Origin: Massalongia carnosa
Taxonomy: Eukaryota
Direction of reading: 5' to 3'
DNA length: 64,000 nt
Assembly: GCA_965645245.1 (NCBI GenBank)
Contig: OZ287087.1
Span: forward strand, 434,001-498,000
Below, one piece after another: positions 666 through 64,000 of this stretch. The notes beneath the pieces were generated by a model that worked only from the letters and a program-made list of their open reading frames with translations, was not told the DNA's origin and ran no database searches. The translations under genes and the position numbers were made by a program. Position 1 is the first letter of the stretch; each line of letters begins with the position of its first letter.

Positions 666-3600
666 ATGCCTTTCCATCGCCCTCAAAGAATCACCAAGCC
701 TTCCGCCCACTCCGGAAACACCTCCGGGCCTGGTCAACGTCTCACTCGTTCCACCCGACCCCCTAGGGGAGGGGCCATAGTTCCAGAAACACAGCCTCCT
801 CCGAACACTCAAGGTTCGGAAGGAACACTTCGGGGCGATGTGATAGACGTCCACCGAACACCGGAACCAACCCCGGACCTGCTGTTGGACCTCAGGGCCT
901 AGCAGGAGGCCACGGCGACAGCCCTCAGGCAGGAGGAGACCCGTCACCTTCAAAAGCAAATCGCTGAGAACTTGGCGGCCATTCAGCGCATAAGGGAAGG
1001 AAACACAGTCCCCGAGGGTAGGCAGGAGGCACACACTCCCCACCCGAACCAGCTACTGCCCGCTGAAACCGAAGGTACGGATCCATGTCTCCTTCCTCTA
1101 ATTATCGAGTATCCTGCCATAAACAGCATTTATTTCCGACAAATTCTGAACAACAAATTCGATCCCATAAATATTTCCAAGCTCTGCACCGATGTAGTCT
1201 TAATCAAACCAACTGTCAAACGAGTGACCTGGCCAAAGGATACGAATTAATACAAGAAGAAGACGATGCGTCACCAGGAGACATCAAGGGACTACCTCAC
1301 CTGATTCGCTGCCTCGGGGTGTATTGGCAGGTCTTGCTTCATTTGGCACCATCCGGAATAAAGGACAGTCTTTGTAGGGTCTTTCAAATCTATCAGGACC
1401 GCTTGCTGTTACATTACACCATCTACACTTGGGAGTCAGTACGAGTGTTTCATATAGTCTTCCACAGGGGTCGGGTGTACCTGGGAGTGAACGACCCGGC
1501 CGGATGGAGGAGAATCGACACCACCGTCGAAAACATGTACCTTACTCGACGGACACCTAACTTGTCCATGACGGGAGGTACCACCAAGCAGCACCCGGGA
1601 TCAATTCCGGTAGGCGGCTCCACTGAACCAAAGCCTATGTCCTGCAATCGATACAACGCAGGGCGGGAATGTAAGGACTGCAGGTACCCTCACGTCTGTA
1701 GTCTCTGTTTCGGCCATCACATAAAAAACAACTGCCCCAAGGCACATATCAGCAACCTAAATTTCATGTCAACAGGTAGACGAGATTGACTAGCCGGCCC
1801 ATTTGATCATATCGCCGAAGGGTTCCCCTATCCGCTGATAGATAAATCAGCAATCGTACCCTCAGGGCCTCTAAGAAAAGAAGGCTGGGAACTTCACCTC
1901 ATGGGTCATCCGGACAAAATTTACAAACAGACCATTCACGATATAATCGTGTACGGGGCCAAAATTGGTTACACCGGCCCAGATCAGTTCATTCTAAGCA
2001 GCAACCTGGCCTCGGCCAACGAGGCCTCAGTCTGACCATGGACGTAGAGGACCAAAGGGCCAAAAACCGATTGATCGAGGTGCCCACCCTAGCAGCCAAA
2101 TAAATATGCTCCCCCTTAGGCCTGGTCCCCAAAGCAAACGGAGGATGGCGCCGTATTCATCACCTCTCCCACCCCGAGGGTAATTCGTTGAACGACTTCA
2201 TTCCCGAGGAATGGGGCGCTCTGGAATATACCACTTTCGACGAAGCCCTCGCCGGCGTCAGAAGAATGGGCAAGGACTGCGTACTGATCAAACGAGATCT
2301 AGCCGATGCCTTTCGCCACGTTCCAGTGGCGCAAAGCGATTGGTGGTTGCTTGGTTTTTGTTGGAACGGGGTTTGCTGGATAGAATGCTTTCTTCCATTC
2401 GGCCTCAGGACGTCTCCCTTCTTGTTTGACTTATTCGCGAAAGGTCTGAACTGGATGATGATTAATAAAACAAATGGCGAAGTTATTCACTACTTGGACG
2501 ATTTTCTTGGAATAGTTCGCGCTATTCCCGATGCGGCATCCTTCGATCGGAACTTTGCCGAAATTTGTTCAGACCTCGGCCTAAAAATCAACGAAAAGAA
2601 AAATAAACAAGGCACGGTAGTCGAGTTCCTGGACATAGAGCTAGACACACACCTGATGCAGGCACTTCGGAAAGCTAAGGATCTCGTCCAAACAACATTG
2701 AATAAATCCACGATAACCAGAAACGAGCTACATAGACACTCTGCTGGGATTTCTGTGCTTTGCAGCCAAAGTGGTGGTACCGGGAAGAACCTTTCTCCGA
2801 TGCCTTTTCAACAGCAAAATCGAGCCCGCGCGCCCATTTATTCATATCAATTCTCACATAAAAGCTGATCTTTTATGGTGGCATCATTTCCTTCCATTAT
2901 GGAACGGCATACATATTATTAGTCCTTCGAGACCCCTGCTCCGTCTCTGGACGGATGCCAGTGGGGACTTCGGAATCGGGGCATACATACTTTAAGGTGG
3001 TCAGACCACACACACATTGCCCGCTGAGCAAGTGGTTTCTGAACGTTATACCACCAGGCTCAGAGCAAAATATATCAATGAGAAGGAGATGACAGCAATT
3101 CTGCACGCCATACGGCGGTGGCTCCCCATGTGCAAGGGAGCTCATCTTCTTCTTTATTGCGACAGCTTTGCTGTAATGTCCGGGGTCAAAAAGACCTCCA
3201 TTCGGGGCAGGGCCATGCATCACCTCCGGAATATTGCCATGATGGCGGCAATATATGACATTGAGATTGAACCTCACTGGCTGTCTACCAAAGAAAATTT
3301 CTTAGCAGATTAGTTGTCCCGAGGACTATTTGGAAAAATCGCTGACAATTACCCCAACCTGCAGAGCATTTCATCGAAAAAATAATGGCGTCACTCGCCT
3401 GCGACCCCCCAGAGACTTGGTATAACGAGGTTCCGCTGGATCGCCGAGCAGCCAGATATTTTTGGTGGAGCATAGCAATTAGGACTCCAGGGCTATACGA
3501 TGCAGCCCGGAAAAGCTACACGACCCACTGTCAATTGGCAACGAATTTCTCTCCCTTTTCAGCTACAATTCGAAGTCTTTCGGCATGGATAGCCGCCCTG

Positions 3601-4474: not shown

Positions 4475-4589
4475 GAGGGGCCCTCAGCAAAACTGAGCGC
4501 CAGCAGGGCAGCAGCGAGGGGAGAGTTGCCCAAACATAGATAGAAATTATATATATGTTCAGCTGACACGATGGAGCCCGCGAATTACC

Positions 4590-5160
4590 CATATAACTCT
4601 TGACCACTGCTCAAAAGTCCACTCACGCCGCAGCAAACACCAATCCAATCGTTTCTTGGCCACCTCAGGCGTCAATAAAGGTCGTTTTTTAGCCACCCAG
4701 TTGATTAAACCATACAGTTTGAGTGCCCGATAAATGGTCGTACGACTGCAGGCGAGCCCCACTTCTAGTTTGATTTGTGCATAAGTGATTCGTGGATTGA
4801 TCCGTGCATGCTTGATGATATAAAGTCGATCGCGTTCTGACAGCACTTCAGGCCGTCCAGAGCGTGATTTAGACACGCTGTCGTTGCGAATTGGGAACTT
4901 CTGAATGGTGCTCTGCACGGTCGATTTAATGAAATTAAGAGTCTTCCCAATCTCGGTCGGTGTGTGCCCCAACGCCTGGGCCCCAAAAATCGTACCACGT
5001 TGATATGGCGTCAACTCAGTGTTACGAGGCCGATTACCACTTATGGGGGTCAAAGAAGCACGAAGCATGGTGAAATGATGTGGTGGAAGATGGGGGGTTG
5101 ATGAGTTGAAAACGCGAAATCACGAAAATCACGGGTTGGGCCGCAGACTTTTGGCACGGG
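4590..5160 (-). mobile_element. 5' fragment of a Tc1/mariner transposon (HTH region only, truncated before DDE)
   Basis: ORF 4559-5068 with SRSGRPEVLSERD, RTTIYRAL, AKKRPLLT and WSRVIW; Tc1-like terminus TA|CCCGTGCCAAAAGT on the minus strand near 5160. Confidence 0.8.
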
Positions 5161-5632: not shown

Positions 5633-6728
5633 AAGTGAATCTATAATTTCATATACAGCACCGTTTGGTCCCTGGTGAGCAGATATTGGCCACTTCAGCG
5701 AGTTTCTAAGAATCATAGAAGGTGTTACTAGTCAGCACCACGTAGAGGTTTCTGCTCGTCGCTGACCACAATGGTTATGAGACTCAAGCAGGAAAAGATC
5801 TAATTTCAATGGAGTTAGTTATTGCTTGACTACGCTCGGCCTATCTCAAAGTCACAAGGGCAGATATAACAGTTATCCCTATTTGATAGCACCTCTTGCG
5901 CAGAGAGGACTGCAACATCCAGAATCTCTACATGTAGTTTATAGTGCCAAGTCAGAATTGGCTTCGGAAGTTTGACGAGGCCGACGTTTTAAGCTGAGAG
6001 CTCAAGTGATTTTCCTCTAGCATTCGTTGCTCTGATCAGTTTCAATCAGGCAAAAGTCTTGACAGTGCAAGTCCAGTATCCTTCAAAACCCTCTTCTTCT
6101 TCCTCCTCTTTCTCCTTCTCTTCTACCTCTCCCCGCATAGCAAAGCCGTTTCCCTATCAGCATCATCATCCACTACCTCAGGAACTTTGTCTACCATTTA
6201 GCATCGAGCATAATCCTCCCCATGACGAGAAAGCAAACGTTATTCAAGTCGCTTCTCACGGCGGAACCAACCAGTATCTTTATTATGTAGGTCGGAAAGC
6301 CGGCGAAGACACACCTCAGCTTCCTTCAGCCCGTTCAGTAGACCTCATTCATCCCAAAGCTCAATGAAAGACTCGAGTGATGAAATGCTCAAGTACATCA
6401 AGACCTCCGTCGGGATTACGACAAGCGAGAAGGCAACTACGTTGATGAACATACAAGGACTCCTATTCGACGAAGACTGTCATTTTACAGTCAGACTTGG
6501 TCAAGTCTTGCGGGGGCTGGTAATGCACATTTTAGGTGTAGCTTCTTAAGGATTAAACTGATGAACGATGATTAACAGTACATCGCAGATCGAACCTTTT
6601 CATAACACTGTCATCACACCGTCGTCACGCCGACAAGGATATTACGATCACATCAGAAATAAGAGTCGAATCAGAAACTCACAATCAAACCCGTGAATTC
6701 AGCGATCATGTTAAGCCATTGAATAACT

Positions 6729-8364
6729 TTATACTAGAATTTCGTTCAGCTTCATAAGTATCTAAAGACATTGTAAGCACGAGCTTTCCGTAAAAGCTGT
6801 ATAATTGATAAACCTTGTCAATGTATTTCACACCCACTAAGACACCATCCTGGTCTTCGAAGCCAAAATCTGCAATGTCTTGATCTAGGCAAGTCAGACA
6901 GTTTATCACAACTTCCTCGTATCGCTCTCCCATCCGCTTAGATAGATCGCGTTTCGCAACAGCGATCAGGCGCTCTTTAATCAGAGCTGGCTGTTTGAGT
7001 TCGGGGCTGTTCGAAGTAATGCCGAGTGCTGCGGCAGGAAGAGGGGCTGTCACACCATCCGCATATGATACGAATGAATCCCACAACCCAAAAGACAGAC
7101 ACCTAGGCTGTAGATGTCATGTTGCATAGTATAGATTTCCTCAGGGTTTAATCCCTGACGATGTGGGTGACGGTAGAGATTCTTCTCCCAAGTAGAGTCA
7201 TCTGACCGCCTTGTTCGACCATCTGCCGTGCGCATCTTCTCGAAACCGACAAGGAAGAACAAGCCAATCTCAGATTCATTAGTTTAACACCCAAGAATAT
7301 TCTCGGGCCGGACGTTCTTGTGCACAAAGCCAAGTGTATGGACATAGCTGATAGACTTGGCCAGTTGTTTTGCAAGCTGGAAACGGTCTGTAAGTGTATG
7401 ATCGAAATATGAGGAGAGATAACTCTGAAGACTTCTAGGCTCATTGCTGAGCTCTCTGGGTATTCGGAATATGAAATCAAAAGAGGATGATCTGCCGCTG
7501 CTGGGTTCTATAACTCGAACTACGCCGCGGCACTGAAGTATGCCGAATGTAAGAGGGTCCACAGAAGAGATTTTTCTTGCAAGCTCCCTTACATCTCTCG
7601 TCATCAAGCCTATGTCGACTTCCGGATCGCATGGGATGCGGTCTAGCACGAACCATTTGTCCGAACCAGCTCTCTGCATACACTTCGCAGATGCGAAAGG
7701 AATCTCGCGCATCCGCGCCGTCTGAAGTCCATCTTTTGGAAGGAAAACGGAGACTTTCTGAAAAGGCCGCTCCCTCAGAGCGTCTCTAAGGCTATGCGTG
7801 CCGGTGAACGAAGATATCGCCAACCCATTTCTGCTCAGCTCCTGGTCAATCAAGGGACTTGAGACCTTCAGGATTAAAAACCAAGATAGATCGAACAACT
7901 TCTGCCATGAGGTCAAATCCTCAATAGATTCATCAAGACATTTTTTAATAAGGACATATTTCAATTTATTTACTTCTGTAACCCAGCCCTTTGTTGCTTG
8001 ATTATCGGATCTCCTTTTAGACAGTTTAACAAGTTTAGAGGTTATGAGGCTTAATTTGTTGATTAGTACCTGGTAAATCCGATCCTGAATTGATTGATGT
8101 TCCTCGTCCAGGCCGTTCCATATCCGCTTGATAAAGTCTAGTTGTAAGTCTGTGCGTTTCCAGTGATTTTCTACGCAGAGTACTCGCTCATTTATCTCGG
8201 CCTCTGCGCCCTTGAAGGTTGCGCTTGTCTCGACAAGAATCTTAACATATCTGGATTGTGTCAGATGGCAGTGCAATAGAGAGAGAATGAAGACGAGCAA
8301 CTCACTTGATACATAGGTCGGCTGTTGCAAAAACAGCAAACGTTATCCCGACTACTTCTGCCAT
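6729..8364 (-). pseudogene. HeLo-like N-terminal domain plus pseudokinase (MLKL-like), copy 1, inactivated
   Basis: ATG at 8364 and intron 8305-8251. Compared with the intact copy at 59525-61179 it has an in-frame TAA at 7284-7286 (CAA in the intact copy), a 7-nt frameshifting deletion near 7090 and a 12-nt deletion near 6861. Confidence 0.85.
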
Positions 8365-8891
8365 GAGTCACGACAGTGTACTTGGATCCTGGACACAAAA
8401 AAGCGGTAAATGATGGGGAAGAGAGACGTCGTTGTATTCCATTAGGCGGAACACTCGATAGAGGCGGTTTCTGCTCTAGCTAGATAGGGTACTTGGGGAT
8501 GTGATGGTGGGGCTGAATCCTAAGGCAGAAGGCATAAGGCTGGATTTCGTTTTCCGTAGCCATCATGAAAACGAGCTTATACTTACCTATATCATAAAGG
8601 GGCACGCTCTGCCATTCAGAATAACCGGACCCTGTCATCTCTGTTGAATCCGGCGCCTCTGACGACGACCCCGTCGCTGATGCGGAGCAGTGCTCAGGCT
8701 TCGGGATGTAGGTCAGGCATAGTTCACATACTACACTATGGTACATGGATGACCGACCATCTTTTGCGCGTTGTGATTGTAAGCTGTGATCGGTGACTGC
8801 CGGTATCCTATGATTTGCGCGTGAGTTCGAGCTGATGATCTACAGACCAAGCGCCTCCTGTCCGCACAAGAGCAGATGTCAGATCGCTACC
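8365..8891. promoter_or_regulatory. Putative bidirectional promoter between the divergent gene pair (527 bp)
   Basis: Short interval between two divergent ATGs, conserved in unit 3 (61180-61734) and partly in unit 2 (29521-29887). No specific motifs identified. Confidence 0.55.
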
Positions 8892-11287
8892 ATGCCACCT
8901 ATTTCAGACCTTGTGCAGGTTTCAAAGCTCGAGACTCAATTCCACTCTGATCCGGAATATACGCAACACGTCCAGTACGTTTCTGGAAGTACGGCAAGAC
9001 AAAGAAAAGTTCGCATGGAGGAAAAATGGATGAGAGAAAGGATGCTAGGAAGCGGCAGTTTCGGGATCGTCTGGTTAGAGCGGTGTATTCATGGGAACAG
9101 TGAAGGGAAAGTACGAGCTGTAAAGAAGGTCCGAAAACTTGAGTCAAGCGATTATTACAGAGAATTGGAAGCTATTGCTCTGTTTTCTCACAGCAATGTA
9201 AGTCTACTGCTGTTATTTTTTCACAACCTACTTTTCCACACCTTACGCTAACGTCAAGCTAGTACGAACGATGCTTTGTTAAGTCCTTCGGCTGGTATGA
9301 TGATAGTGACAGCATATTTATTACTATGGAGTACCTTTCATATGGTGATTTGCATAAGTACCTCGGTTCACCGCTACCAGAGAAGGAAGGACAGCATATC
9401 GTTTTTCAGATCCTCGAAGGCTTACAATTCATGCATGATAAAGGGTTCGCTCACAGAGATTTAAAGCCAGCTGTAAGCCTAGCTACATGCATCAATAAAA
9501 TCAGAAAATTAGCTAATACTCTAATTAATACAGAACATACTAGTTGTGTGCAAAGGCCCAGATTGGTGGGTCAAGATCGCAGACTTTGGAATCAGCAAGC
9601 GGGCAACAGAGGGACTTACAGCATTAAGAACCCGAACAGGTACACCTGCTTTTACGGCACCAGAAGTACTCGGCATTATTCAATCGAACGACGAATCAAA
9701 TGATTCGTATACAAACGCTGTTGATATCTGGTCTCTAAGTGTTATCACATTCTTCATACTCACCGGCGAGATTCTTTTCAAAGACCCGCGCCGTCTAGGT
9801 AAGTATGTTGCGGGCAACTTTAAATTTCCTTTGAATGTCTTGCTTGTAAACAAAGTAAGCAGACAGGGATGCGACTTCTTAAAAAGCTCAATGGCGTCAA
9901 ATTCTGAGGATCGTCCAAGGGCTAATGAATGTTTACAACATTCGTGGTTGGATTTTCTTATAGAAGAGGCGGCTCCCGACACTCCAAGGTATTACTTCTT
10001 ATAGATGGAGACAGAAAATTATTATAATATCTTATAATAATAATATTGTAGTGTTGCTGATATCTTTGCAGAAAAATCAATGTTACAAAGCCAATGTCAA
10101 CACCGCTGGACTGTTCAGATCCTGAGCCCTCTGCTAGTTGGAGCACTCAAGACTCAATTTCGGCCTACGAGACGCATAGCTCTACGGGCGTGCTTACTAA
10201 ACAGACTTTGTCTACTTCCAAGGAAGCAGTCGCACCTTCAAAATCAGAACCAGCGACTCAAATCTATTGGCATATGGCAAGCATCCTCAAGGGTCATTCG
10301 AATTATGTTTGCGCGGTGGCGTTCTCGCCAGACGGGAAGCAGATCGCGTCCGCATCGTGGGACACGACGATCAGGCTCTGGGACTCGGCCACGGGGGCTT
10401 CGCGCAACATCCTCGAGGGTCATTCGGGTGAGGTTTTGGCGGTGGCGTTCTCGCCAGACGGGAAGCAGATCGCGTCCGCATCGTGGGACAGGACGATCAG
10501 GCTCTGGGACTCGGCCACGGGGGCTTCGCGCAACATCCTCGAGGGTCATTCGGGTTATGTTTTCGCGGTGGCGTTCTCGCCAGACGGGAAGCAGATCGCG
10601 TCCGCATCGTGGGACAGGACGATCAGGCTCTGGGACTCGGCCACGGGGGCTTCGCGCAACATCCTCGAGGGTCATTCGGGTTATGTTTTGGCGGTGGCGT
10701 TCTCGCCAGACGGGAAGCAGATCGCGTCCGCATCGTGGGACAGGACGATCAGGCTCTGGGACTCGGCCACGGGGGCTTCGCGCAACATCCTCGAGGGTCA
10801 TTCGGGTGGAATTCTGGCGGTGGCGTTCTCGCCAGACGGGAAGCAGATCGCGTCCGCATCGGCCGACACGACGATCAGGCTCTGGGACTCGGCCACGGGG
10901 GCTTCGCGCAACATCCTCGAGGGTCATTCGGGTGGAATTCGCGCGGTAGCGTTCTCGCCAGACGGGAAGCAGATCGCGTCCGCATCGGCCGACAGGACGA
11001 TCAGGCTCTGGGACTCGGCCACGGGGGCTTCGCGCAACATCCTCGAGGGTCATTCGGGTGAGGTTTTGGCGGTGGCGTTCTCGCCAGACGGGAAGCAGAT
11101 CGCGTCCGCATCGTGGGACAGGACGATCAGGCTCTGGGACTCGGCCACGGGGGCTTCGCGCAACATCCTCGAGGGTCATTCGGGTTATGTTTTCGCGGTG
11201 GCGTTCTCGCCAGACGGGAAGCAGATCGCGTCCGCATCGAACGACACGACGATCAGGCTCTGGGACTCGGCCACAGGGGCGGCGTAA
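8892..11287 (+). CDS. Ser/Thr protein kinase fused to 8 highly conserved WD40 repeats, copy 1 (about 728 aa, intact)
   Basis: Exons 8892-9197, 9263-9472, 9534-9988 and 10072-11287 splice in frame through three GT-AG introns. Kinase motifs [38 protein letters not shown]; Ser/Thr-rich linker; GH...WD repeats of 42 aa. Confidence 0.92.
10292..11284 (+). repeat. Coding tandem repeat, 8 x 126 bp (WD40)
   Basis: Consensus GHSxxV/[37 protein letters not shown]; units nearly identical at DNA level. Confidence 0.97.
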
Positions 11288-14200
11288 TATGGTTTCCCAG
11301 TACCTAGAAAAGTTTTTCACATAGAAAATTATTACGACCTCCTTCCCCACCCACCTCCATCGCCCTTTACGTCCTTATATACCATTTTAATCATTGGATT
11401 ATTAATTCCTGCTTCAAAGAATGTCGCTCTACTTTGATTTCTAAGCTACTTCGAAACTCTTGTCCTGGAATGTACTTTGCTTTGAAATCCTAAGTCACGG
11501 CGTATAACGACCTCGCGGTTAAATAAGCTTTACCATTAAGTTATTGGAATTTGCCGAGATACCTGAATATTTGCGACCGAGGTTCTTTTGCCTCCTGCTT
11601 ACTAATTTCCAGTTTAGGCAGTCATATGCTATATGCGAAAAGCTTCAGATATCGGCACGACTTCTGCAACTACGAGGAGGCAAAAGTATGCAGCAAGAAT
11701 GCTACATTTCGGAGGCAATTCAGCTGTTCATGATCACTGAGTGTCTCGGTGTCTCCGGTCAGCAACGAGGTGTATTTTGCCCAGCTGAAAAGGTTCAAAG
11801 GAAGCAGGTTCATGCATTTGATATAGGCCGAGATGGAGGCCCTCAAGCAGTATAAAGAGACGATGATTCCTCATGTAATTTAGCTATTCAGTCGTTCAGA
11901 ATTCAGTTCAGCAGATAGCTAAATTTGGAGTATCTTCACTGGAAATACGGAGTACCTGCATCACGTTTGCCAAGCACTTCTCTTTGCCTATCCTTGATAG
12001 CCCTAGACCCTCTTCTCCTGCATCCCGCTGCCGTATGCCTGGTTGATTTTTTGTTCAACATAAGTTAACCGACCTATTAGCCTTGTAGGACGAATAGGCA
12101 CAAATCTGTAGTGAGAAACTTCAGTGCTTATTCTAGTACGTGTACGATAGAGGCACATTAATCAGAAAACGACAGTATAAACGCAAACAGAAAAAAGTAA
12201 CCTTTCCAAAAACGCAGAATAAAGAACGTAGCTTCAGGCGACGTCACTACATCACAAACCAAATGCTGTTCCGCTGCCATCAAAACGAGACGAATGCAAA
12301 TCTACGGCGGACGGTAAATACCAAACCGCCATAACGAAATTCTTGAGTTTCGAATCGCGACATTGCGACGAAAAAACAACGTACATTTATAATTCCACGC
12401 TTTCTTCTCTTCCCATTTCTTCCTCTCTATATATAAAGTTAGTATAGTTCAATGATGGGACTTCGTACGATCTGAAACATACTCTTCAACCTTGTCTGAT
12501 ATGCTTAAAGTGTCAACCTGCGCTGCCGCCTACTCTCGAGACAACTGATCATCAGGGTTGTCTTCTACAGAAGACAACGAGACGGTTGTCTCAATTGTAC
12601 GACGCTCTGACGCAGACGCAGACGACGAAAGAGGGAGTGCCACATGAGAGAACTGTTGCGTTAAGGGGGGAATAGGTCTGACGATCGCGTACACTCCGTC
12701 TATGATGATGATGATGATAAATTCTTACACCGATATGTCACCGGCCGAAGGCCGGCCCATGCGGGCGTGGTTCTATATGACTATTGTACATAGGAAAACC
12801 TTTTAAGGAATAAAAACCTAGTAACCAAAATTATCGCCTGCGGGATCCCCATGACCCCTCAGTGTACCTAATAACGTGTATCTGTGAGGTCCTTGAAAGA
12901 AAACGGAAAAGAACGAAAGAAAAGGGGAGGAAGTCAAACATTTCAAATGCTGTGTCGACGGGAACTATCCGTACAGCATGGTTGCTGCAATTGAATACTG
13001 TTTTAGTATATCTGCCCGCATTAACCATGCTGTCAGCTTTTTCAATTTTGCGGAATTTTCAATTATCGTGCGATAATTGTTAGTTTTCACTTGATTAAAT
13101 AATTCATTTCTTCCGTCTATCAGCTGACAGTGCATGATGACGTGTTTGGCCGTCTGCCTTGGCCATCCACATATGCACGCCGGTGAGTTTACATTGGGTA
13201 CCCTTCGGTTGAAAAGAAAGTTGGCTAGCCCGATTTTCTCCGTGCGAATTTGCGTTGCTAGTGAACTCTCCGCTTTTGCCAAATTGCTGTGAATTTTTAA
13301 TCTCTTTTTGTCAAGCGAAGCTTGTTGAGCTTCGGTGGGGAGTGGAATACGATTTTGATAAGTCGCCCATGTTGACTTCCTTATTTTCATATGATGCTCC
13401 ATGAGCCGCGTATAATGTGCCCGTTGGGCCGTTCGCGCTTCTCTCAGCTCCTTGAGATATTCTGGACTGGCCTCGTACCACGGGGGCGCGGAAGGCGGTA
13501 ATCTGACGGCGGCCTCTCCATTTAAAATTGCCTTGGCCCATGTGTGTTTCAGTTCTCCGGGTGTTGGCGGCGGAGTTTTTCTTCGACCCGCTCTTTCCCG
13601 TAGCTTATTAGCTATTATCTTGCATGCGGAGTTAGCGAGTGCTTTTTGCCCCGTGATTCGTAGTCGATATCTGGCTTTAGCCTGTAGTTGATCCAAATAC
13701 ACATCTATTGGGGCTATGTGTGTTTCTGCCTCCAGCACCGGTATCAGGGTATCCTTGAACGCTCCGGCGACTGTGCGTAGGCATCTGTTCTGAATGACCA
13801 CCAATTTGGACGTTATAGATTTATTTCTATTTACGTCTTTCGGTTGTGCCAGACGATTGAACCATATGTCATGGCTAGCCGCACCACCGCCGTTTATACT
13901 TGCCTAGCCCTAGCGAACGAAGCTCCCCAGGTAGACGTGGAAATTTTTGTTAAGGCCATGCTCTGCTTGACCATCTTCTCCTGCGTTTTCCGTATGTGTT
14001 GAAGACAGAGTATTCTTATATCCGCTTTTGGTTTGATTAGGCTGTTTTCTATATTAATAGTAGCCGTCATATCAAATTTCTTTGGATTACTAGATAAATG
14101 AATAAGCTCGTACTTAGTCGGAGCAAATAAGGATCCGTGCCGTAGAGCCCATCTTTCACATTCTCTGTGAATTCTTTCTAGCGTTCTGCAATTTTCTTGC

Positions 14201-29887: not shown

Positions 29888-32157
29888 ATGCCACCTATTT
29901 CAGACCTTGTGCAGCTTTCAAAGCTCGAGACTCAATTCCACTCTGATCCGGAATATACGCAACACGTCCAGTACGTTTCTGGAAGTACGGCAAGACAAAG
30001 AAAAGTTTGCATGGAGGAAAAATGGATGAGAGAAAGGATGCTAGGAAGTGGCAGTTTCGGAATCGTCTGGTTAGAGCGGTGTATTCAAGGGAACAGTGAA
30101 GGGAAAGTACGAGCTGTAAAGAAGGTCCGAAAACTTGAGTCAAGCGATTATTACAGAGAATTGGAAGCTATTGCTCTGTTTTCTCACAGCAATGTAAGTC
30201 TACTGCTGTGATTTTTTCACAATACACGTTTTCACACTTTAAGCTAACGTCAAACTAGTACGAACGATGCTTTGTCAAGTCCTTCGGCTGATATGATGAT
30301 AGCGACAGCATATTCATTACTATGGAGTACCTTTCATATGGTGATTTGCACAAGTACCTCGGTTCACCGCTACCAGAGAAGGAAGGACAGCATATCGTTT
30401 TTCAGATTCTTGAAGGCTTACAATTCATGCATGATAAAGGGTTCGCTCACAGAGATTTAAAGCCAGCTGTAAGCCTAGCTACATGCATAAATAAATCAAA
30501 AACATTACCTAATACTCCAAGTAATACAGAACATACTAGTTGTGTGCAAAGGCCCAGATTGGTGGGTCAAGATCGCAGACTTTGGAGTCAGCAAGCGGGC
30601 AACAGAGGGAATTACAGCATTGAGAACCCAAAGAGGCACACCTGCTTTTACGGCACCAGAAGTACTCGGCTTGATTCAATCGAACGACGAATCAAATGAT
30701 TCGTATACAAAAGCTGTCGATATCTGGTCTCTAAGTGTTATCACATTCTTCATACTCACCGGCGAGATTCTTTTCAAAGACCCGCGCCGTCTAGGTCAGT
30801 ATGTTGCGGGCAACTTTAAATTTCCTTTGGATGTCTTGCTTGTAAACAAAGTAAGCGGACAGGGATGCGACTTCTTAAAAAGCTCAATGGCGTCAAAGTC
30901 TGAGGATCGTCCAAGGGCTAATGAATGTTTACAACATTCGTGGTTGGATTTTCTTATAGAAGAGGCGGCTCCCGACACTCCAAGGTATTACTTCTTATAG
31001 ATGGAGACAGAAAATTATTATAATATCTTATAATAATAATATTGTAGTGTTGCTGATATCTTTGCAGAAAAATCAATGTTACAAAGCCAATGTCAACACC
31101 GCTGGACTGTTCAGATCCTGAGCCCTCTGCTAATTGGAGCATTCAAGACTCAATCTCGGCCTACGAGACGTATTGCTCTACGGGCGTGCTTACTAAAAAG
31201 ACTTTATCTACTTCTAAGGAAGCAGTAGCATCTTCAAAATCAGAACCAGCGACTCAAATCTATTGGCATATGGCAAGCATCCTCAAGGGTCATTCGGATT
31301 CTGTTCAGGCGGTGGCATTCTCGCCAGACGGGAAGCAGATCGCGTCTGCATCGTGGGACACGACGATTAGGCTCTGGGACTCGGCCACGGGGGCTTCGCG
31401 CAACATCCTCAAGGGTCATTCGGGTGGGATTCGTGCGGTGGCATTCTCGCCAGACGGGAAGCAGATCGCGTCTGCATCGAGCGACACGACGATCAGGCTC
31501 TGGGACTCGGCCACGGGGGCTTCGCGCAACATCCTCAAGGGTCATTCGGGTGGGATTTGGGCGGTGGCATTCTCGCCAGACGGGAAGCAGATCGCGTCTG
31601 CATCGTGGGACACGACGATCAGGCTCTTGAACTCGGCCACGGGGGCTTCGCGCAACATCCTCAAGGGTCATTCGGGTGGGATTCGGGCGGTGGCATTCTC
31701 GCCAGACGGGAAGCAGATCGCGTCTGCATCGTGGGACACAACGATCAGGCTCTGGGACTCGGCCACGGGGGCTTCGCGCAACATCCTCAAGGGTCATTCG
31801 GGTGGGATTCGTGCGGTGGCATTCTCGCCAGACGGGAAGCAGATCGCGTCTGCATCGATGGACACGACGATCAGGCTCTGGGACTCGGCCACGGGGGCTT
31901 CGCGCAACATCCTCAAGGGTCATTCGGATTCTGTTCAGGCGGTGGAATTCTCGCCAGACGGGAAGCAGAGCGCGTCCGCATCGTGGGACACGACGATCAG
32001 GCTCTGGGACTCGGCCGCGAGGGCTTCGCGCAACATCCTCAAGGGTCATTCGGATTCTGTTCAGGCGGTGGCATTCTCGCCAGACGGGAAGCAGATCGCG
32101 TCCGCATCGTGGGACATGACGATCAGGCTCTGGGACTCGGCCACCTGGGCGGCGTAA
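29888..32157 (+). pseudogene. Kinase-WD40 copy 2 (7 repeats), nonsense mutation in exon 2
   Basis: Same exon structure (29888-30193, 30259-30468, 30530-30984, 31068-32157). TGG to TGA at 30289-30291 in frame. WD repeats also carry changes at otherwise invariant positions (LLNS, VEFS, KQSA). Confidence 0.88.
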
Positions 32158-33585: not shown

Positions 33586-36500
33586 TTATTTAGTCCTCTT
33601 TGTGCGTCGTCCTGTTTCTTTCGCTAATGAGGGAGTCCTAGTGGCCTGAGGGGTGGACTTTGCTGTTGGCTTGGTAGGATTTTTCTCATGAAATTCCCTC
33701 AATAGCTTTCGTAGATGTTTGACGCCGGCGACGGGCTCCCATGTGTCTTCCGCGTCGGGATAACCTTTCCAATGCACTAGATAATATAATCCAGCCGGTC
33801 GTCCGTCTTCTGCTTCTTTTGCATAGACTGCACTATCTCGTATGCACTCTACTTCATACTCTTGCATGTCATCGTCTTCGAATTCAAGCTGTTCAGCCAT
33901 TTGTTCGTCTACTACCTCCCTTCTAGTGGTGTCTCTTTCCAGTAGAGACACATGAAAGACTGGGTGTATTTTCCAACTTTCGGAAGTTCTAGCTCGTAAG
34001 CTTGAGTGCCTACAGGCCTCAACACCTTAAAGGGACCCAAGAACTTATGCTCAAGCTTCTTGTTCCTTTTCGTCTTAATATGTTTGCTGTTTAGCCAAAC
34101 CATATCATCGGGAGCGTAGCAACGTTCTTTCACCGTTCTATTGTGATATTTGGCTTGATTGTCTTGGGCTAATTGCAGGTTATTTTTCAACTCTGCTAAC
34201 AAATCGCGTAGATTTTTAGCCTGTTCCTCAGCTGTCTTCGACTTCGATCGAGGGTCTTGGTTATCTTCATAACTCATCCTTGGGTGGTAGCCTATATTAG
34301 CCTCGAACGGGGTGAGCTTGGTGCTTGAATGACGGGTGTTATTGTATGCAAATTCAGCGGTAGGGAGCCATTGCACCCAGTCATCTTGTTCGAAACGGCA
34401 GTAAGACCTAAGGTAAGCTTCCATGGTACTATTTTGACGTTCTGTCTGACCGTCTGTTTGTGGATGGAAGGCTGTGCTTAGCCTACGCTTTATCTTCATG
34501 TAATAGCATAGGGATGACCAGAAGTTTGATGTAAATAGCGAGCCCCGATCGGTGACTATGGAGTCAGGTAGGCCGTGATACTTGAACACGCAGTGCCTTA
34601 GCACTTCAGCTAACTGTTCAGCAGTCAGCGTTTTCTTCACTGCCTCATAGTGCACCATCTTGGTGAGCCTATCAACGACGACTAGGATGGAGTCATAATC
34701 AACTCCCCTCCAGTCCTTACTCTTAGGTAAGCCAGTGACGAAGTCCATCGTAATGTCCTTCCACTTATGAGTTGGTATAGGCAACGACTGCAAGTTTCCA
34801 TAAGGCTTATGCCTCGTAGCTTTGCTACTCATGCAGACGTCGCAACCCTCTACATAGCGTGCTATGTCTGACTTCATCGATGGCCAGTAGTACTTTCTAC
34901 TCACTAGCTCAATCGTCTTGTCTTTCCCGAAGTGCCCTGCCAGCGGATCATCATGATTTAACTCAAGAATTTCTCCTCGTAAGGAGGCTGGGATGTAGGC
35001 CTTTCCTTCATGGAATAGACAGTGGTCCGAGTCCGACCATGGCTCGCTGGAGGGCGCCACCTCCTGTGTCCCCGACACGTCACTGTCTTTCAAGGTAGCT
35101 AACCTTTTCCGAACAGTGATAGCGACCTCGTCAACCTGTTGCAACTCAGGAAGACGCTCTAATACTCCCCTAGAAGCGGGTTGAGTATAAGGTGACTCGC
35201 GCTGTGCGAGAGAGTTTCGCAATGAACTCCAGTATGCCTTCACCTTCGGAACAACCAATGTTCCGCATGTTATGATCTTCCATATTTCACCGTGGTGAGA
35301 CCCCGTCGGGCCAGAAGCATCATCTAACGACTCCCCTGACATTGCCCTCATTAGACAAACGCGTGCGTTCTTATCTGCTAGGGATGTCTGCAAAAGGTGG
35401 AGCGTTTTGCGGTTTTCAACCAGCACTTCGCCATCATCATCGCCAGCGGTAGGAGGTCTTGACAGCCCATCGGCTGGGTTCCTCTTACCCTGACGATAAT
35501 CGATGCGGAAATTATACCTGGAAAGCTCTTGAGCCCACCTTACTTGCCTGCCGCTTAGGCGCTTGGTATCCATAAACCTCGTAAGGTTATTGTGATCAGT
35601 CAACACGAGAATTTCGTGAGACGACCCCTCAAGGTAATGTCTCCAAATTTTGAAGGCCTCGACTATCGCTAATAGTTCAGCATCATGGGTCTCGTAATTA
35701 CGCTCAGCCGGTAGCATCTTGCGTGAGTAATAGGCAACAGGGTGCCATTGTCCCTCGTCATCTTGCTGAGCCAATATGCCGCCAATAGCATAACCTGACG
35801 CATCGGTTTCCACGCGTACTGGTTTACTAGCATCGTAATGCCTTAGTACCGGGGCCTCTATGAACGACTTTTTCAGCTTCTCAAAAGCCTCTAGAGCTTC
35901 CTCCGTAAGGAACTCGCTTTCGACACCCTTAGGTGCTTTCTGTCTATGATTAGCGGGCTTTGTTTTCAGCATAGCGGTAAGTGGCCCTGCTATTTTACTG
36001 AACCCACGAATGAATCGTCTATAGAAATTCGCGAAGCCTATGAACACCTGTACATCGCGTACGCATGTGGGCCGTGGCCAATTTTGCACTGCTTGGATGC
36101 GATCTTTTCGCATATAAACACCCTTAGGATTGATGACATAGCCTAGGAATTCGACTTCGTCGGTGCTGAATCGGCATTTTTGTAAGTTACAAAATAAGCC
36201 ATGCTTGCGGAGTTGTTCTAACACCCATCGCACAGCATCTTCATGGGCCTTACCCTTCTGTTCGGTATAGATCAGTATATCATCCAAATAAACGATGCAG
36301 AAGACATCCAGTTTTAGTGCCAACGCTTTATTAATATAAGCTTGGAAGGAGGCGGGAGCATTGGATAATCCGAACGGCATGACGCAGTATTCGAAATGGC
36401 CATATCGGGTGCGAAAGGCTGTCTTCCATTCGTCGCCTTTCTTAATTCTGATGCGATTATAGGCTGCAGTCAAATCCAATTGGGTGTATTGTTTGGCCCG

Positions 36501-37514
36501 TCCTAGTCGATCTAAAGACTCGCCTACTAATGGTAGCGGGTAGCGATTTTTAACTGTCAAATTGTTCAGACCCCTATAATCCACGCAGAGCCTCAGGGTA
36601 CCATTTGCCTTAGGCACGAAGAGAATAGGAGCTCCAGCTGGTGAGGTGGATGGCCGGATAAATCCATTAGCCAGGTGAGCATCGAGGTAGGCTCTTAGCA
36701 CTGCAAGCTCTGTTTCTGATAGGCTATAGATAGGTCCATATGGAGGCTGCTTTCCATCCACGAGGTCGATCGCATGATCATGGGGCCCGTGCTCTGGTAG
36801 CTCGGCTGCACTATCTTCAGAAAAGACATCTGCGAAATCCTTATAAGCCTCAGGGACCTTGATTTCTTGTACCTTCACTGAGGCTATTCTAGCTCGACGG
36901 CTCGAATGGATGTTATCTACACCTAGCGCCTTAGCATGGACCACGTAGGTCAGTGTATCTTCTGATAACGCCTCTTCTATGAAGACTTCTGGCTCTATAA
37001 GCTCTATCTGATGAGTAGTCATCATGGCCGATTGAACGCTTAGTTCTCGCCAATTCAGGGTCCTTGCTGACCAATCAATATCGGGATTGGCTAGCTGCAG
37101 GAATGGCATGCCCAACACGATATTATGAGGTATATCTGCTATTAGGAATGTTTCCTCAAAGAAACGTTGCAGACCTAATTGATCAGTTACCCCGAACACC
37201 AACAGACCCATGCCATGTGTCATGACTTGCTGGTGATTAATAGCTTCCAAACTGACGCTGGAGTGTAACACTGTCAGAGCGCATATATTTGCGTAAGCTC
37301 TAGAAATAAGGTTAACTTCACTTCCGCTGTCAATTAGTGCTTTTGCTGTTTCTTTAGCGTGTGTTATTTCGTACTCTATGCAGGGTGCGACTTCCAATGT
37401 CTTAGGACTTGCCGATGCCTCTTTGATAGTAGTCGCCGGTAGGGAGGCAGCAGCGGCGACTATGCTTTTTTTGGATGGGGACAGTCTTTTACCCAATGTT
37501 CGAGGGATCCACAA
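33586..37514 (-). CDS. pol: Ty3/gypsy Pol (protease, RT, RNase H, integrase, chromodomain); one frameshift near 33980
   Basis: Motifs LIDSGS, VYLDDILI, TDASGYAIG, ITMDFVTGLP, TDRGS, GQTERQN and GPF; chromodomain YLVHWKGYPDAEDTWEP lies in the adjacent frame (33586-33951). Confidence 0.93.
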
Positions 37515-59524: not shown

Positions 59525-61179
59525 TTATACTAGGATTTCGTTCAGCTTCATAAGTATCTAAAGACATTGTTAGCACGAGCTTTCCGTAAAAGCCGTATAA
59601 TTGATAAACCTTGTCAATGTATTTCACACCCACTAAGACACCATCCTGGTCTTCGAACTCGCTCTGATCGCCAAAATCTGCATTGTCTTGATCTAGGCAA
59701 GTCAGACAGTTTATCACAACTTCCTCGTATCGCTCTCCCATCCGCTTGGATAGATCGCGTTTCGCAACAGCGATCAGGCGCTCTTTAATCAGAGCTGGCT
59801 GTTTGAGTTCGGGGCTGTTCAAAGTAATGCCGAGTGCTGCGGCAGGAAGAGGGGCTGTCACACCATCCGCATATGATACGAATGACTCCCACAACCCAAC
59901 CTCCAAAAGACAGACACCTAGGCTGTAGATGTCATGTTGCATGGTATAGATTTCCTCAGGGTTCAATCCCTGACGATGTGGGTGACGGTAGAGATTCTTC
60001 TCCCAAGTAGAGTCACCTGACCGCCTTGTTCGACCATCTACTGTGCGCATCTTCTCGAAACCGACAAGGAAGAACAAGCCAAACTCAGATTCATTAGTTT
60101 GGAAGCCAAGAACAGTCTCGGGCCGGACGTTCTTGTGCACAAAGCCAAGTGTATGGACATAGCTGATAGACTTGGCCAGTTGTTTTGCAAGCTGGAAACG
60201 GTCTGTAAGTGTATGATCGAAATATGAGGAGAGATAACTCCGAAGACTTCTAGGCTCGTTGCTGAGCTCTCTGGGTATTCGGAATATGAAATCAAAAGAG
60301 GATGATCTCCCGCTGCTGGGTTCCATAACTCGAACTACACCGCGGCACTGAAGTATGCCGAATGTAAGAGGGTCCACAGAAGAGAGTTTTCTTGCAAGCT
60401 CCCTTACATCTCTTGTCATCAAGCCTATGTCGACTTCCGGATCGCATGGGATGCGGTCTACCACGAACCATTTGTCCGAGCCAGCTCTCTGCATACACTT
60501 CGCAGATGCGAAAGGAATCTCGCGCATCCCCGCCGTCTCAAGTCCATCTTTTGGAAGGAAAACGGAGACTTTCTGAAGAGGCTGCTCCCTCAGAGCGTCT
60601 CTAAGGCTATGCGTGCCGGTGAACGAAGATATCGCCGACCCATTTCTGCTCAGCTCCTGATCAATCAAGGGACTTGAGACCTTCAGGATTAAAAACCAAG
60701 ATGGATCGAACAACTTCTGCCATGAGGTCAAATCCTCAATAGATTCATCAAGACATTTTTTAATCAGGACATATTTCAATTTATTTACTTCTATAACCCA
60801 GCCATTTGTTGCTTGATTATCGGATCTCCTTTCGGACAGTTTAACAAGTTTAGAGGTTATGAGGCTTAATTTGTTGATTAGTACCTGGTAAATCTGATCC
60901 TGAATTGATTGATGTTCCTCGTCCAGGCCGTTCCATATCCGCTTGATAAAGTCTAGTTGTAAGTCTGTGCGTTTCCAGTGATTTTCTACGCAGAGTACTC
61001 GCTCATTTATCTCGGCCTCTGCGCCCTTGAAGGTTGCGCATGTCTCGACAAGAATCTTACCATATCTGGATTGTGTCAGATGGCAGTGCAACAGAGAGAG
61101 AATGGAGACGAGCAACTCACTTGATACATAGGTCGGCTGTTGCAAAAACAGCAAACGTTATCCCGACTACTTCTGCCAT
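59525..61179 (-). CDS. HeLo-like N-terminal domain plus pseudokinase (MLKL-like architecture), intact, about 515 aa
   Basis: Predicted exons 61179-61121, 61065-59610 and 59557-59525 (second donor GTTTAT is weak). N-terminus MAEVVGITFAVFATADLCIKYGKIL. Kinase C-lobe motifs RFQLAKQLAKSISYVH, VHKNVRPETVL, LVGFE, YRHP, HDIYSLGVCLLEVGLW. No Gly-rich loop or VAIK lysine recognisable. Confidence 0.88.
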
Positions 61180-61734: not shown

Positions 61735-64000
61735 ATGCCACCTATTTCAGACCTTGTGCAGGTTTCAAAGCTCGAGACTCAATTCCACTCTGATCCGGAA
61801 TATACGCAACACGTCCAGTACGTTTCTGGAAGTACGGCAAGACAAAGAAAAGTTCGCATGGAGGAAAAATGGATGAGAGAAAGGATGCTAGGAAGCGGCA
61901 GTTTCGGGATCGTCTGGTTAGAGCGGTGTATTCATGGGATCAGTGAAGGGAAAGTACGAGCTGTAAAGAAGGTCCAAAAACTTGAGTCCAGCGATTATTA
62001 CAGAGAATTGGAAGCTATTGCTCTGTTTTCTCACAGCAATGTAAGTCTACTGCTGTTATTTTTTCACAACCTACTTTTCCACACCTTACGCTAACGTCAA
62101 GCTAGTATGAACGATGCTTTGTTAAGTCCTTCGGCTGGTATGATGATAGTGACAGCATATTTATTACTATGGAGTACCTTTCATATGGTGATTTGCATAA
62201 GTACCTCAGTTCACCGCTACCAGAGAAGGAAGGACGGCATATCGTTTTTCAGATCCTCGAAGGCTTACAATTCATGCATGATAAAGGGTTCGCTCACAGA
62301 GATTTAAAGCCAGCTGTAAGCCTAGCTACATGCATCAATATAATCAGAAACTTAGCTAATACTCTAAGTAATACAGAACATACTAGTTGTGGACAAAGGC
62401 CCAGAGTGGTGGGTCAAGATCGCAGACTTTGGAGTCAGCAAGCGGGCAACAGAGGGACTTACAGCATTAAGAACCCAAAGAGGCACACCTGCTTTTATGG
62501 CACCAGAAGTACTTGGCTTTATTCAATTGAACGACGAATCAAATGATTCGTATACAAACGCTGTTGATATCTGGTCTCTAAGTGTTATAACATTCTTCAT
62601 ACTCACCGGCGAGATTCTTTTCAAAGACCCGCGCCGTCTAGGTCAGTATGTTGCGGGCAACTTTAAATTTCCTTTGAATGTCTTGCTTGTAAACAAAGTA
62701 AGCAGACAGGGATGCGACTTCTTAAAAAGCTCAATGGCGTCAAAGTCTGAGGATCGTCCAAGGGCTAATGAATGTTTACAACATTCGTGGTTGGATTTTC
62801 TTATAGAAGACGCGGCTCCTGACACTCCAAGGTATTAATTCTTATAGATGGAGACTGAAAATTATTATAATATCTTATAATAATAATGTTGTAGTGTTGC
62901 TGATATCTTTGCAGAAAAATCAATGTTACAAAGCCAATGTCAACACCGCTAGACTGTTCAGATCCTGAGCCCTCTGCTAGTTGGAGCACTCAAGACTCAA
63001 TTTCGGCCTACGAGACGCATAGCTCTACGGGCGTGCTTACTAAAAAGACTTTGTCTACTTCTAAGGAAGCAGTAGCACCTTCAAAATCAGAACCAGCGAC
63101 TCAAATCTATTGGCATATGGCAAGCATCGTCAAGGGTCATTTGGGTTCTGTTCGGGCGGTGGCATTCTCGCCAGACGGGAAGCAGATCGCGTCCGCATCG
63201 GGGGACACGACGATCAGGCTCTGGGACTCGGCCACGGGGGCTTCGCGCAACATCCTCAAGGGTCATTTGGCTTCTGTTCGGGCGGTGGCATTCTCGCCAG
63301 ACGGGAAGCAGATCGCGTCCGCATCGGGGGACACGACGATCAGGCTCTGGGACTCGGCCACGGGGGCTTCGCGCAACATCCTCAAGGGTCATTCGGGTTA
63401 TGTTCGGGCGGTGGCATTCTCGCCAGACGGGAAGCAGATCGCGTCCGCATCGGGGGACACAACGATCAGGCTCTGGGACTCGGCCACGGGGGCTTCGCGC
63501 AACATCCTCAAGGGTCATTCGGGTGATGTTCGGGCGGTGGCATTCTCGCCAGACGGGAAGCAGATCGCGTCCGCATCGGGGGACACGACGATCAGGCTCT
63601 GGGACTCGGCCACGGGGGCTTCGCGCAACATCCTCAAGGGTCATTCGGATTATGTTCAGGCGGTGGCATTCTCGCCAGACGGGAAGCAGATCGCGTCCGC
63701 ATCGTGGGACAATACGATCAGGCTCTGGGACTCGGCCACGGGGGCTTCGCGCAACATCCTCAAGGGTCATTCGGGTGATGTTGAGGCGGTGGCATTCTCG
63801 CCAGACGGGAAGCAGATCGCGTCCGCATCGAAGGACACAACGATCAGGCTCTGGGACTCGGCCACGGGGGCTTCGCGCAACACCCTCAAGGGTCATTCGG
63901 GTGCAATTTTCGCGGTGGCATTCTCGCCGGACGGGAAGCAGATCGCGTCCGCATCGCGGGACACGACGATCATGCTCTGGGACTCGGCCACGGGCGTGCT
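61735..64000 (+). CDS. Kinase-WD40 copy 3, open to the window edge (at least 7 repeats)
   Basis: Exons 61735-62040, 62106-62315, 62377-62831 and 62915 to the end; all catalytic motifs intact; no stop codon seen. Confidence 0.9.

Follow-up and report, generated by a model that had tools for sequence, protein, structure and literature searches.

What would a fungal cell do with a protein kinase that is joined directly to the sort of WD40 repeats that normally sit behind a nucleotide-binding domain? The question is raised by a gene in 64,000 nucleotides of Massalongia carnosa DNA (contig OZ287087.1 of assembly GCA_965645245.1, positions 434,001 to 498,000 of the forward strand). We call this whole stretch the window and count positions from its first letter. 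The gene in question, gene A, lies at 8892-11287 on the plus strand. A tblastn search of its model against the window finds two further genes with the same exon-intron structure, and we refer to the three as copies A, B and C. We believe gene A encodes a sensor kinase without a nucleotide-binding and oligomerization domain (NOD), and we lean towards the view that it probably acts on an MLKL-like partner encoded head to head with it; the mechanism is inferred. We are highly confident of the architecture of gene A and of its membership in the family described below.

The gene model is the place to start. Gene A has 4 exons and 3 introns, which splice to a coding sequence of 2187 nt, 728 codons followed by TAA, with zero internal stops. 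A sequence-only reading of this DNA had proposed that three short introns join four fragments into a protein of about 728 amino acids, made of a kinase, a Ser/Thr-rich linker and 8 WD40 repeats. This is borne out: the introns are of the GT..AG form, the frame is open over 728 codons, and the parts are recovered by Pfam and by Tandem Repeats Finder. The start codon agrees with the N-termini of homologues. The Pfam Pkinase profile runs without a gap over exons 1-3 (Table 1), so introns 1 and 2 are independently fixed. On its sequence gene A is an intact four-exon gene.

The translation of gene A keeps every motif of an active Ser/Thr kinase: GxGxxG, the beta3 Lys, the alphaC Glu, HRDLKPAN, DFG and APE. 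The catalytic motifs are likewise retained across the kinase family in the homologue sequences. We read the domain as a catalytically complete, active-looking Ser/Thr kinase. It appears to be CAMK-like; the best solved kinase matches of a homologue that is 74% identical over exon 3 (P0002) are CaMK1, STK17A, CHK2, Rad53 and DAPK, with E-values from 1e-25 to 1e-20. The kinase also has a conserved N-terminal extension that could be a regulatory or docking element. Between the kinase copies in the window the ratio of nonsynonymous to synonymous differences per site (pN/pS) is 0.34-0.72, on 22-34 differences. Kinase and linker together fit mild purifying selection, as weak evidence.

The repeats are of a very particular kind. 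Exon 4 contains 8 WD40 stretches (PF00400, E 1.4e-112), and for 10277-11280 Tandem Repeats Finder gives 8.0 copies with a period of 126, 94% matches, no indels and a score of 1740. The units are 89-100% identical to each other as DNA, and units 2 and 7 are the same. They differ at codons 3, 7, 8, 9, 10, 26 and 28, in every case changing the residue, and there are 3 synonymous differences in total, 2 of them in the last unit. When the 19 full units of copies A-C are pooled, positions 7, 8, 10, 26 and 28 hold 3-7 residues each. Outside these positions (plus 3 and 9) the unit is nearly invariant, the decay of copy B aside. In Podospora the HET-E/NWD repeats have four codons under strong positive selection, 7, 9, 25 and 27, which lie on the propeller's top face and form pairs about two conserved codons, 8 and 26 (Paoletti 2007, PMC1805685; here and below, a cited paper stands for the part of its text that was available). 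With an offset of one residue, positions 8, 10, 26 and 28 of the window units are these same four codons, and they flank a conserved V/I-9 and D-27. We assign the array, by this match of variable positions and not by a formal dN/dS site test, to the HNWD/NWD type.

A search with the array against longer proteins leads to the same place. The most similar named fungal proteins are NACHT-WD40 proteins that carry the annotation HET-E-1-like, none above 69% over all 334 residues. The WD identity of the array is 58-69% to NACHT-WD40 proteins and 61-78% to members of its own family. NACHT-type families make up at least 31 of the best 120 array matches by hand count. Pkinase is found in at least 42 of the same 120, none of them fungal-named; they are unnamed metagenome or bacterial-type proteins. 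It had been claimed from the sequence that high-identity WD40 arrays normally sit behind NACHT domains in fungi, and the search agrees with this, as does Dyrka et al. 2014 (PMC4986451) in the part of its text available. By sequence, then, the array of gene A is hypervariable and of the type found in fungal NOD-like receptors (NLRs), specifically HET-E/NWD.

Despite this array, no nucleotide-binding domain is found in gene A. The NACHT and NB-ARC profiles of Pfam match none of its exons. A Walker-A-like motif, G-x4-GK[ST], is absent from the gene A model and from 22 family members. When the N-terminal 700 residues of five NACHT-WD40 proteins are searched by tblastn against the 64-kb window, WD repeats are the sole matches. 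When the parts ahead of the WD repeats in the model and in about 13 members are compared with the retrieved NACHT-WD40 and kinase-WD40 proteins, kinase domains are the only matches. The distance from kinase to first blade leaves only 70 amino acids. The earlier claim that there is no nucleotide-binding domain has therefore held up against Pfam, the motif scan and tblastn. Gene A does have the C-terminal repeat array with high internal conservation that is used to recognize NLRs (8 units, 89-100% identical in nucleotides). We place it outside the NLR class, since these searches did not recover the NOD that defines such receptors.

The kinase and the array are encoded on opposite sides of intron 3, so the junction needs to be considered closely. 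The kinase ends about 80 residues ahead of the first blade, and the linker of 70 amino acids includes 23 Ser or Thr. In metagenome DNA one stop-to-stop open reading frame (ORF) spans the kinase C-lobe, linker and WD40 at four related loci (L008, L009, L023 and L030). At a fifth, L019, a kinase and a long ankyrin (ANK) array share a single uninterrupted ORF of 1146 amino acids. Six proteins from metagenome or run assemblies (P0004, P0008, P0011, P0018, P0022 and P0026) have kinase, linker and WD40 in one frame, and several such proteins begin at non-ATG codons or exon boundaries. At L001, L002 and L003 the frame ends right after the residues that close exon 3 of gene A, so there must be an intron at the same place there. 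The linker aligns in frame on either side of the junction across fungal classes. It contains a short acidic motif (Table 1) that is kept in Lecanoromycetes, Eurotiomycetes, Leotiomycetes and Dothideomycetes, with 1-3 copies per homologue; it is doubled or tripled in several of P0001, P0008, P0014, P0018 and P0023. The motif could be a docking site, a phospho-motif, a pseudosubstrate or a regulatory element. Public contigs of unknown kind carry the introns as single pieces over 9909-10136 and 9066-9497 and are uninformative on splicing. One contig of run X3 joins 8952 to 10282 through 39 other letters resembling a WD repeat, and it probably reflects paralogues or repeats that were joined during assembly. 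The relatives with single uninterrupted kinase-linker-WD40 ORFs support the proposal that the kinase is fused directly to the array without a NOD. Judging from genomic and protein sequences, we take it that the two parts are truly fused in the family, and very probably in gene A as well.

If gene A is a sensor kinase, what does it phosphorylate? The best clue is the gene that starts on the other strand about 0.5 kb upstream. The intergenic region between the two start codons is presumed to be a shared bidirectional promoter. In copy C the partner is intact, and its start codon and that of the kinase are 556 nt apart. In copy A the neighbour has a 20-codon exon 1 (8364-8306) for a small segment that is hydrophobic and rich in glycine, a 55-nt intron (8305-8251) and a long exon, and it has decayed through an in-frame stop at 7284-7286 and deletions of 7 nt and 12 nt relative to the copy C neighbour. 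No divergent neighbour was detected beside copy B.

The neighbour belongs to a large family: 3868 cluster representatives match at E <=0.001, and 486 still do so at E <=1e-30. Among 68 aligned members, Pfam at E <=0.001 matches Pkinase in 50, PK_Tyr_Ser-Thr in 41 and DUF7580 in 10. The scores of the two kinase profiles are below or near their cut-offs, and DUF7580 is at its cut-off in L030 (27.7 vs 27). An AlphaFold2 model built on the 68-sequence alignment has a per-residue confidence (pLDDT) of 87.5 and a predicted TM score (pTM) of 0.86; an earlier model on 5 sequences was poor (pLDDT 54.8). The later model has four long and two short helices, followed by a kinase fold at residues 166-491. 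VIA-align against 48,161 chains, in alignments that cover these residues only, gives Z scores of 20.8 for BRAF, 19.7 for IRAK1, 18.5 for RIPK1, 18.2 for the rat MLKL pseudokinase and 17.7 for RIP3.

The catalytic residues of this fold have been replaced. In place of HRD the 68 members have H in 66, K in 66 and N in 53, and at the DFG equivalent they have G in 67, F in 67 and E in 39. No glycine-rich loop is evident in the 68-member alignment. The C-terminal domain of the partner is, on this alignment, a pseudokinase that lacks both the catalytic Asp and the DFG Asp. Position 348 of the alignment, in the activation segment, is Ser or Thr in 68/68 members, which is compatible with phosphorylation and no more than that. 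In MLKL orthologues, too, GFE replaces DFG, and the protein becomes active when a Thr or Ser of the activation loop, a few residues further on, is phosphorylated (PMC6013482). The N-terminal 165 amino acids are harder to name. In the language-model Atlas they come nearest to HeLo clusters, at 0.93, 0.90 and 0.88 (163 shared features), which the calibration of the Atlas itself treats as a lead and not as proof, and the whole partner scores 0.98-0.99 to clusters with HeLo in 11-98% of members. We think the N-domain is probably HeLo-like, going by these comparisons and the model. One weak PigL_N match appears at E <=1 among the members.

The same arrangement is found far from this window. Neighbour homologues lie divergently upstream of the kinase at L007, L019, L022, L023 and L030, and L002 has a match at the contig edge. 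Counting distinct loci with >=3 kb upstream (L024 is a near-identical duplicate of L023), the neighbour is present at 5/10 related metagenome loci, in addition to window copies A and C. At the paired loci the kinases, some with WD40 and some with ANK, share just 30-44% identity with one another, and the neighbours 33-48%. A head-to-head pair that persists over kinases as different as this argues for functional or regulatory coupling, and the recurrence of the partner gene suggests that the output is trans-phosphorylation and that the switch is not self-contained. At L005 a HET-domain gene (8175-8918, minus strand; PF06985, E 9e-30) lies in the divergent upstream position of the pseudokinase, and P0012 is annotated as HET plus a partial kinase plus WD40. 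Another cell-death domain may replace the pseudokinase as the partner.

The mechanism we propose is as follows. The hypervariable top face of the propeller would be the surface that recognizes the ligand, as in HET-E/HET-D, and would bind a variable ligand, as has been argued for HET-E and HET-C. Binding would alter the activity or the clustering of the kinase, which would be the output of the protein. The most likely substrate would be the protein encoded head to head, and the kinase would phosphorylate the invariant Ser/Thr in the activation segment of its pseudokinase. The helical N-terminal domain of the partner might then be released and act on or damage membranes. Such a system would do by phosphorylation, and without a NOD, what the two-gene NLR/HeLo and protease/gasdermin modules do in fungi. 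Since copy A's own partner has decayed, copy A would have to use the 97%-identical partner of copy C, or it may be on its way out. Whether such a protein would serve as a non-self or immune-type sensor seems to us evenly balanced. The whole module, in which a ligand-sensing kinase-repeat protein phosphorylates a HeLo-like pseudokinase that damages membranes, would be a two-gene fungal counterpart of RIPK3-MLKL, expanded in lichen-forming fungi. We offer this as a tentative idea that is more likely wrong than right.

A number of observations weigh against our proposal. The ligand, the substrate and the cell-death outcome are all inferred, and the splicing and expression of gene A are predicted from its DNA. 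GTATTA, the donor of intron 3, departs from the most common form. The pN/pS values given above for the kinase show purifying selection weakly. The partner is absent upstream at 5/10 distinct loci (L005, L008, L009, L013 and L025), and one of these, L009, is the sole locus matched by the window linker. In the window the copy A partner is a pseudogene with a stop and a frameshift, and copy B is broken. Nor is MLKL the closest fold match of the partner: it ranks 28th by VIA Z, nearly tied with many kinases, and it is not in the Foldseek top 50 for the whole partner model, where the top 50 are generic kinases. The Pfam HeLo profile matches 0/68 partner members even at E <=1, Helo_like_N likewise matches none at E <=0.001, and a PDB search with a profile of the N-domain from 4 sequences gives nothing below E 0.04.

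Several other explanations of gene A deserve to be weighed on the same data. One could argue the kinase and WD40 parts are separate products: transcripts would end in intron 3 or retain it, and the WD40 ORF would begin at its own Met near 10094 or go untranslated. There is indeed an in-frame Met downstream of the acceptor, the donor of intron 3 is weaker, and retaining this intron brings in a stop at 10002-10004, just as the sequence-only reading had said of the unspliced frame. We consider this very unlikely given the relatives with one uninterrupted kinase-linker-WD40 ORF and a linker whose conservation holds in frame before and after the junction in different classes. The boundaries and phase of the intron are identical in the three window paralogues, and the linker pN/pS among them is 0.10-0.50. 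Gene A could instead be a recent redundant duplicate drifting to loss in a transposon-rich region, so that its intact frame is a sign of youth and not of function. The premature stop in copy B and the decay of the copy A partner suit this idea, as do a region full of retrotransposons and exons ahead of the repeats that differ by 1-5% between copies. It is difficult to square with a gene that has no lesion in 728 codons when its neighbour 0.5 kb away has three. The differences between WD units fall at selected positions and are almost all nonsynonymous. Introns 1 and 2 of A and B have also diverged more (85-86% identical) than the flanking exons (97-98%); intron 3 is identical in the two, which suggests exchange between copies. 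We think drift is an unlikely account of the gene.

The remaining alternatives accept a fused protein and differ on what it does. The sequence-only reading had proposed a cytosolic receptor kinase, in which one propeller inhibits or dimerizes the kinase until ligand binds. In a self-contained version of this, the propeller or linker would hold the kinase inactive or drive its dimerization, the substrates would be general signalling proteins and the neighbour would be irrelevant. The same architecture is known from abundant bacterial Ser/Thr kinase-WD40 proteins (PMC5587647, from what is available of it), the partner is missing from half of the related loci, and the conserved linker motif could regulate the kinase. 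However, kinases with WD40 or ANK that share just 30-44% identity have the same divergent neighbour beside them, a recurrence that is difficult to account for unless the two genes are functionally coupled. We give the self-contained version a low probability, about that of drift; the propeller might still inhibit or dimerize the kinase. It has also been proposed that CHK2-like PKinase domains in Sordariales NLRs are decoys (PLoS Genet 2025, PMC12258605, in its available part), and since the gene A kinase also appears CAMK/CHK2-like it might be an integrated decoy, a bait watched by another receptor. Against this, the family keeps all of the catalytic motifs, and the protein lacks a NOD or any other signalling domain that could report on the bait. 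We find the decoy idea hardly credible. A recent transfer of a bacterial gene of the PkwA type was considered and rejected: gene A has three spliceosomal introns, the best matches of its kinase among solved structures are in the eukaryotic CAMK group, and its WD array is nearer to fungal NACHT-WD40 proteins. We therefore continue to favor a NOD-less sensor kinase that probably acts on its head-to-head partner.

The nearest database relatives of gene A come from lichen-forming Lecanoromycetes. A search with exon 3 against longer proteins finds 44 relatives, the closest of which are again from lichen-forming fungi: Lobaria immixta (77%, a kinase-WD40 protein), Protoblastenia (74%), Sticta (72%), Lasallia (71%), Letrouitia (71%) and Endocarpon (69%). 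In the databases these relatives are hypothetical proteins only. Pkinase is combined with WD40-type repeats in 22 of the 44, with ankyrin in 4, and with tetratricopeptide (TPR) repeats, SH3 and a ricin-type lectin in 1 each; the other 15 are labelled kinase alone, all by their precomputed Pfam lists. In a maximum-likelihood tree of the kinase C-lobe (48 rows and 149 columns, after seven rows with short matches were dropped) the WD40 label must have changed at least 6 times and the ANK label at least 4 times on strongly supported branches. Rows in which no repeat is labelled may be truncated gene models, and the labels come from incomplete Pfam lists. One well-supported clade of nine rows has 5 ANK, 3 WD40 and 1 TPR. 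Full-length WD40 members mostly have 7 units with internal identities from 28% to 87%, and positions 7, 8, 10 and 26 again vary most. The window genes are, by sequence, at the young and highly homogenized end of this range. Same-family kinases followed by TPR, ankyrin, ricin-type lectin or SH3 are seen at L013:5450-6148 (+) and L012:1052-1396 (+) and in P0030 and P0027, and the lectin and SH3 members mean that the range of sensors is wider than the three NLR repeat types. On the tree and the domain labels, this is a conserved family that has its centre in lichen-forming ascomycetes and combines a single kinase scaffold with interchangeable WD40, ankyrin or TPR arrays.

The window itself holds a cluster that is partly decaying, as the broken copy B and the decayed copy A partner indicate. 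Copies A and C have about 5 kb in common at 97-99% identity, the upstream gene included, and copy B joins this similarity only partway through the intergenic region. Copy B is probably a pseudogene, judging by the features in Table 1. The top-face residues of copy C differ from those of copy A. The rest of the 64-kb window is mostly retrotransposon sequence, which separates the three gene copies. Retroelement ORFs are found at 33915-38686 (-), 44086-47270 (+), 51954-56395 (-), 2104-2865 (+) and 12968-13903 (-). They include Ty3/gypsy-type pol and gag, two copia-type elements and reverse-transcriptase fragments; the ORF at 12968-13903 (-) has no Pfam match and is retroelement-like by a reading of its sequence alone. 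Another ORF, 4559-5119 (-) of 186 amino acids, resembles the helix-turn-helix N-terminus of a Tc1/mariner-type transposase and may be one.

Table 1. Positions of gene A, its divergent neighbour and their paralogues in the 64-kb window
Feature	Positions	Strand	Description
Exon 1, gene A	8892..9197	+	Conserved N-terminal extension, glycine-rich loop, beta3 Lys, alphaC Glu; Pkinase profile 3-59 (E 0.0069)
Intron 1, gene A	9198..9262	+	65 nt, GTAAGT...CTAAC...AG; Pkinase profile continuous from 59 to 61; position kept in copies B and C
Exon 2, gene A	9263..9472	+	Kinase core to HRDLKPA catalytic loop; Pkinase profile 61-127 (E 1.8e-14)
Intron 2, gene A	9473..9533	+	61 nt, GTAAGC...AG; Pkinase profile continuous from 127 to 128
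Exon 3, gene A	9534..9988	+	Kinase C-lobe with DFG, APE and subdomains IX-XI; Pkinase profile 128-263 (E 8.9e-22)
Intron 3, gene A	9989..10071	+	83 nt, GTATTA...AG, phase 2; connects kinase with linker and WD40; predicted
Exon 4, gene A	10072..11287	+	70-amino-acid Ser/Thr-rich linker, 8 WD40 units, TAA stop
Conserved linker motif	10118..10153	+	Short acidic Ser/Trp/Thr-Gln motif; from alignment, L009 linker match and homologue sequences
WD40 units of gene A	10283..11284	+	Eight near-identical 42-amino-acid (126-nt) units; vary at 7, 8, 10, 26, 28
Intergenic region	8365..8891	.	527 nt between divergent starts 8364 (-) and 8892 (+); A vs C 97.5% identical
Divergent neighbour of copy A	6706..8364	-	Helical N-domain and pseudokinase; decayed
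Paralogue B, kinase-WD40	29888..32157	+	Same introns, 7 WD40 units; TGG to TGA at codon 113 (30289-30291); several degenerate repeats
Paralogue C, kinase-WD40	61735..64000	+	Same introns; open to window end; at least 6 full units and one cut by window end
Divergent neighbour of copy C	59598..61179	-	Intact; 20-amino-acid exon 1 (61179-61121), open frame, helical N-domain and pseudokinase (HKN, GFE)

How does gene A compare with systems that are already known? It is like Podospora HET-E/NWD in having 42-amino-acid WD40 units of very high internal identity that vary at two pairs of top-face positions flanking conserved residues, and in a repeat number that changes between paralogues (8 and 7 here). 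It is unlike them in having an active-looking kinase at the N-terminus in place of HET. It also lacks both NACHT and a P-loop, so a switch driven by NTP-dependent oligomerization cannot operate in it. Fungal NLRs with an N-terminal PKinase have been listed (Dyrka et al. 2014, PMC4986451) and are rare in Sordariales (PMC12258605), as far as the available parts of these papers go. They share with gene A the combination of a kinase and NLR-type repeats that form superstructures, but theirs have a NOD between the two and gene A has none.

A closer parallel may be the fungal gasdermin clusters, where an S8 or CHAT protease is fused directly to WD40, TPR or ANK (PMC10197012 and PMC12881547, in the text available). 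There too an enzyme sits directly on NLR-type repeats without a NOD, and a putative membrane-targeting executioner adjoins it in a two-gene cluster. Gene A has a kinase and not a protease, its neighbour has a pseudokinase and a helical N-domain and is not a gasdermin, and the activation we propose is by phosphorylation and not by cleavage. The NOD-less protease-repeat partner of fungal gasdermins is nevertheless the nearest conceptual precedent.

The animal pair RIPK3-MLKL resembles ours in having an active-looking Ser/Thr kinase with a partner made of a helical N-domain, two short helices and a pseudokinase. As in MLKL, as far as it is described in the source used above, the pseudokinase has GFE for DFG and a conserved hydroxyl residue in the activation segment. 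Unlike RIPK3, the sensor kinase appears CAMK-like and has a repeat sensor of its own, and a RHIM is not seen in it. Unlike MLKL, the partner has an N-domain that Pfam recognizes as neither HeLo nor MLKL_N, and its pseudokinase fold is no closer to MLKL than to many tyrosine-kinase-like kinases. The genes for RIPK3 and MLKL are not known to be adjacent in animals.

Bacterial Ser/Thr kinase-WD40 proteins such as PkwA of Thermomonospora curvata, as partly described, also unite in one polypeptide a Pkinase domain and, after it, a WD40 propeller of highly repetitive units. The bacterial-type matches of our array search differ from gene A in being 1000-1900 amino acids long, and their WD identity of 39-56% falls below that of the fungal NACHT-WD40 proteins; gene A is spliced and its kinase matches are of the eukaryotic CAMK group. 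We know of no divergent pseudokinase partner for PkwA. LRRK2/ROCO kinases are like gene A in placing a C-terminal WD40 propeller directly after a kinase. LRRK2 has LRR, ANK and ROC-COR GTPase domains in addition, and the blades of its propeller have diverged from each other, unlike the near-identical units of gene A.

The usual view is that a fungal receptor of the immune type needs a nucleotide-binding switch to connect its sensor repeats with its effector, the known exceptions being the proteases that cleave gasdermins. The family described here puts an active-looking kinase directly on fast-diversifying sensor repeats, and does so repeatedly beside a gene with the domain layout of MLKL. In the open-access literature as available, which besides papers cited above included PMC9815663 and bioRxiv 10.1101/2024.08.16.608140, supplementary tables aside, we did not find a kinase-WD40/ANK family without a NOD described as having a HeLo-like pseudokinase for a partner. 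Some fungal HeLo-like domains are said to sit on pseudokinases 'reminiscent of MLKL', and the available part of that account names no upstream activator (PMC12881547). The interest of the locus rests mainly on the gene pair, in which the adjacent sensor kinase is a concrete and testable candidate for the activator of fungal MLKL-like proteins. If this is true, fungal cell death would be linked to necroptosis by phosphorylation as well as by amyloid signalling. The close relatives are concentrated in lichen-forming fungi, which makes the family a candidate for partner or non-self recognition in the symbiosis.

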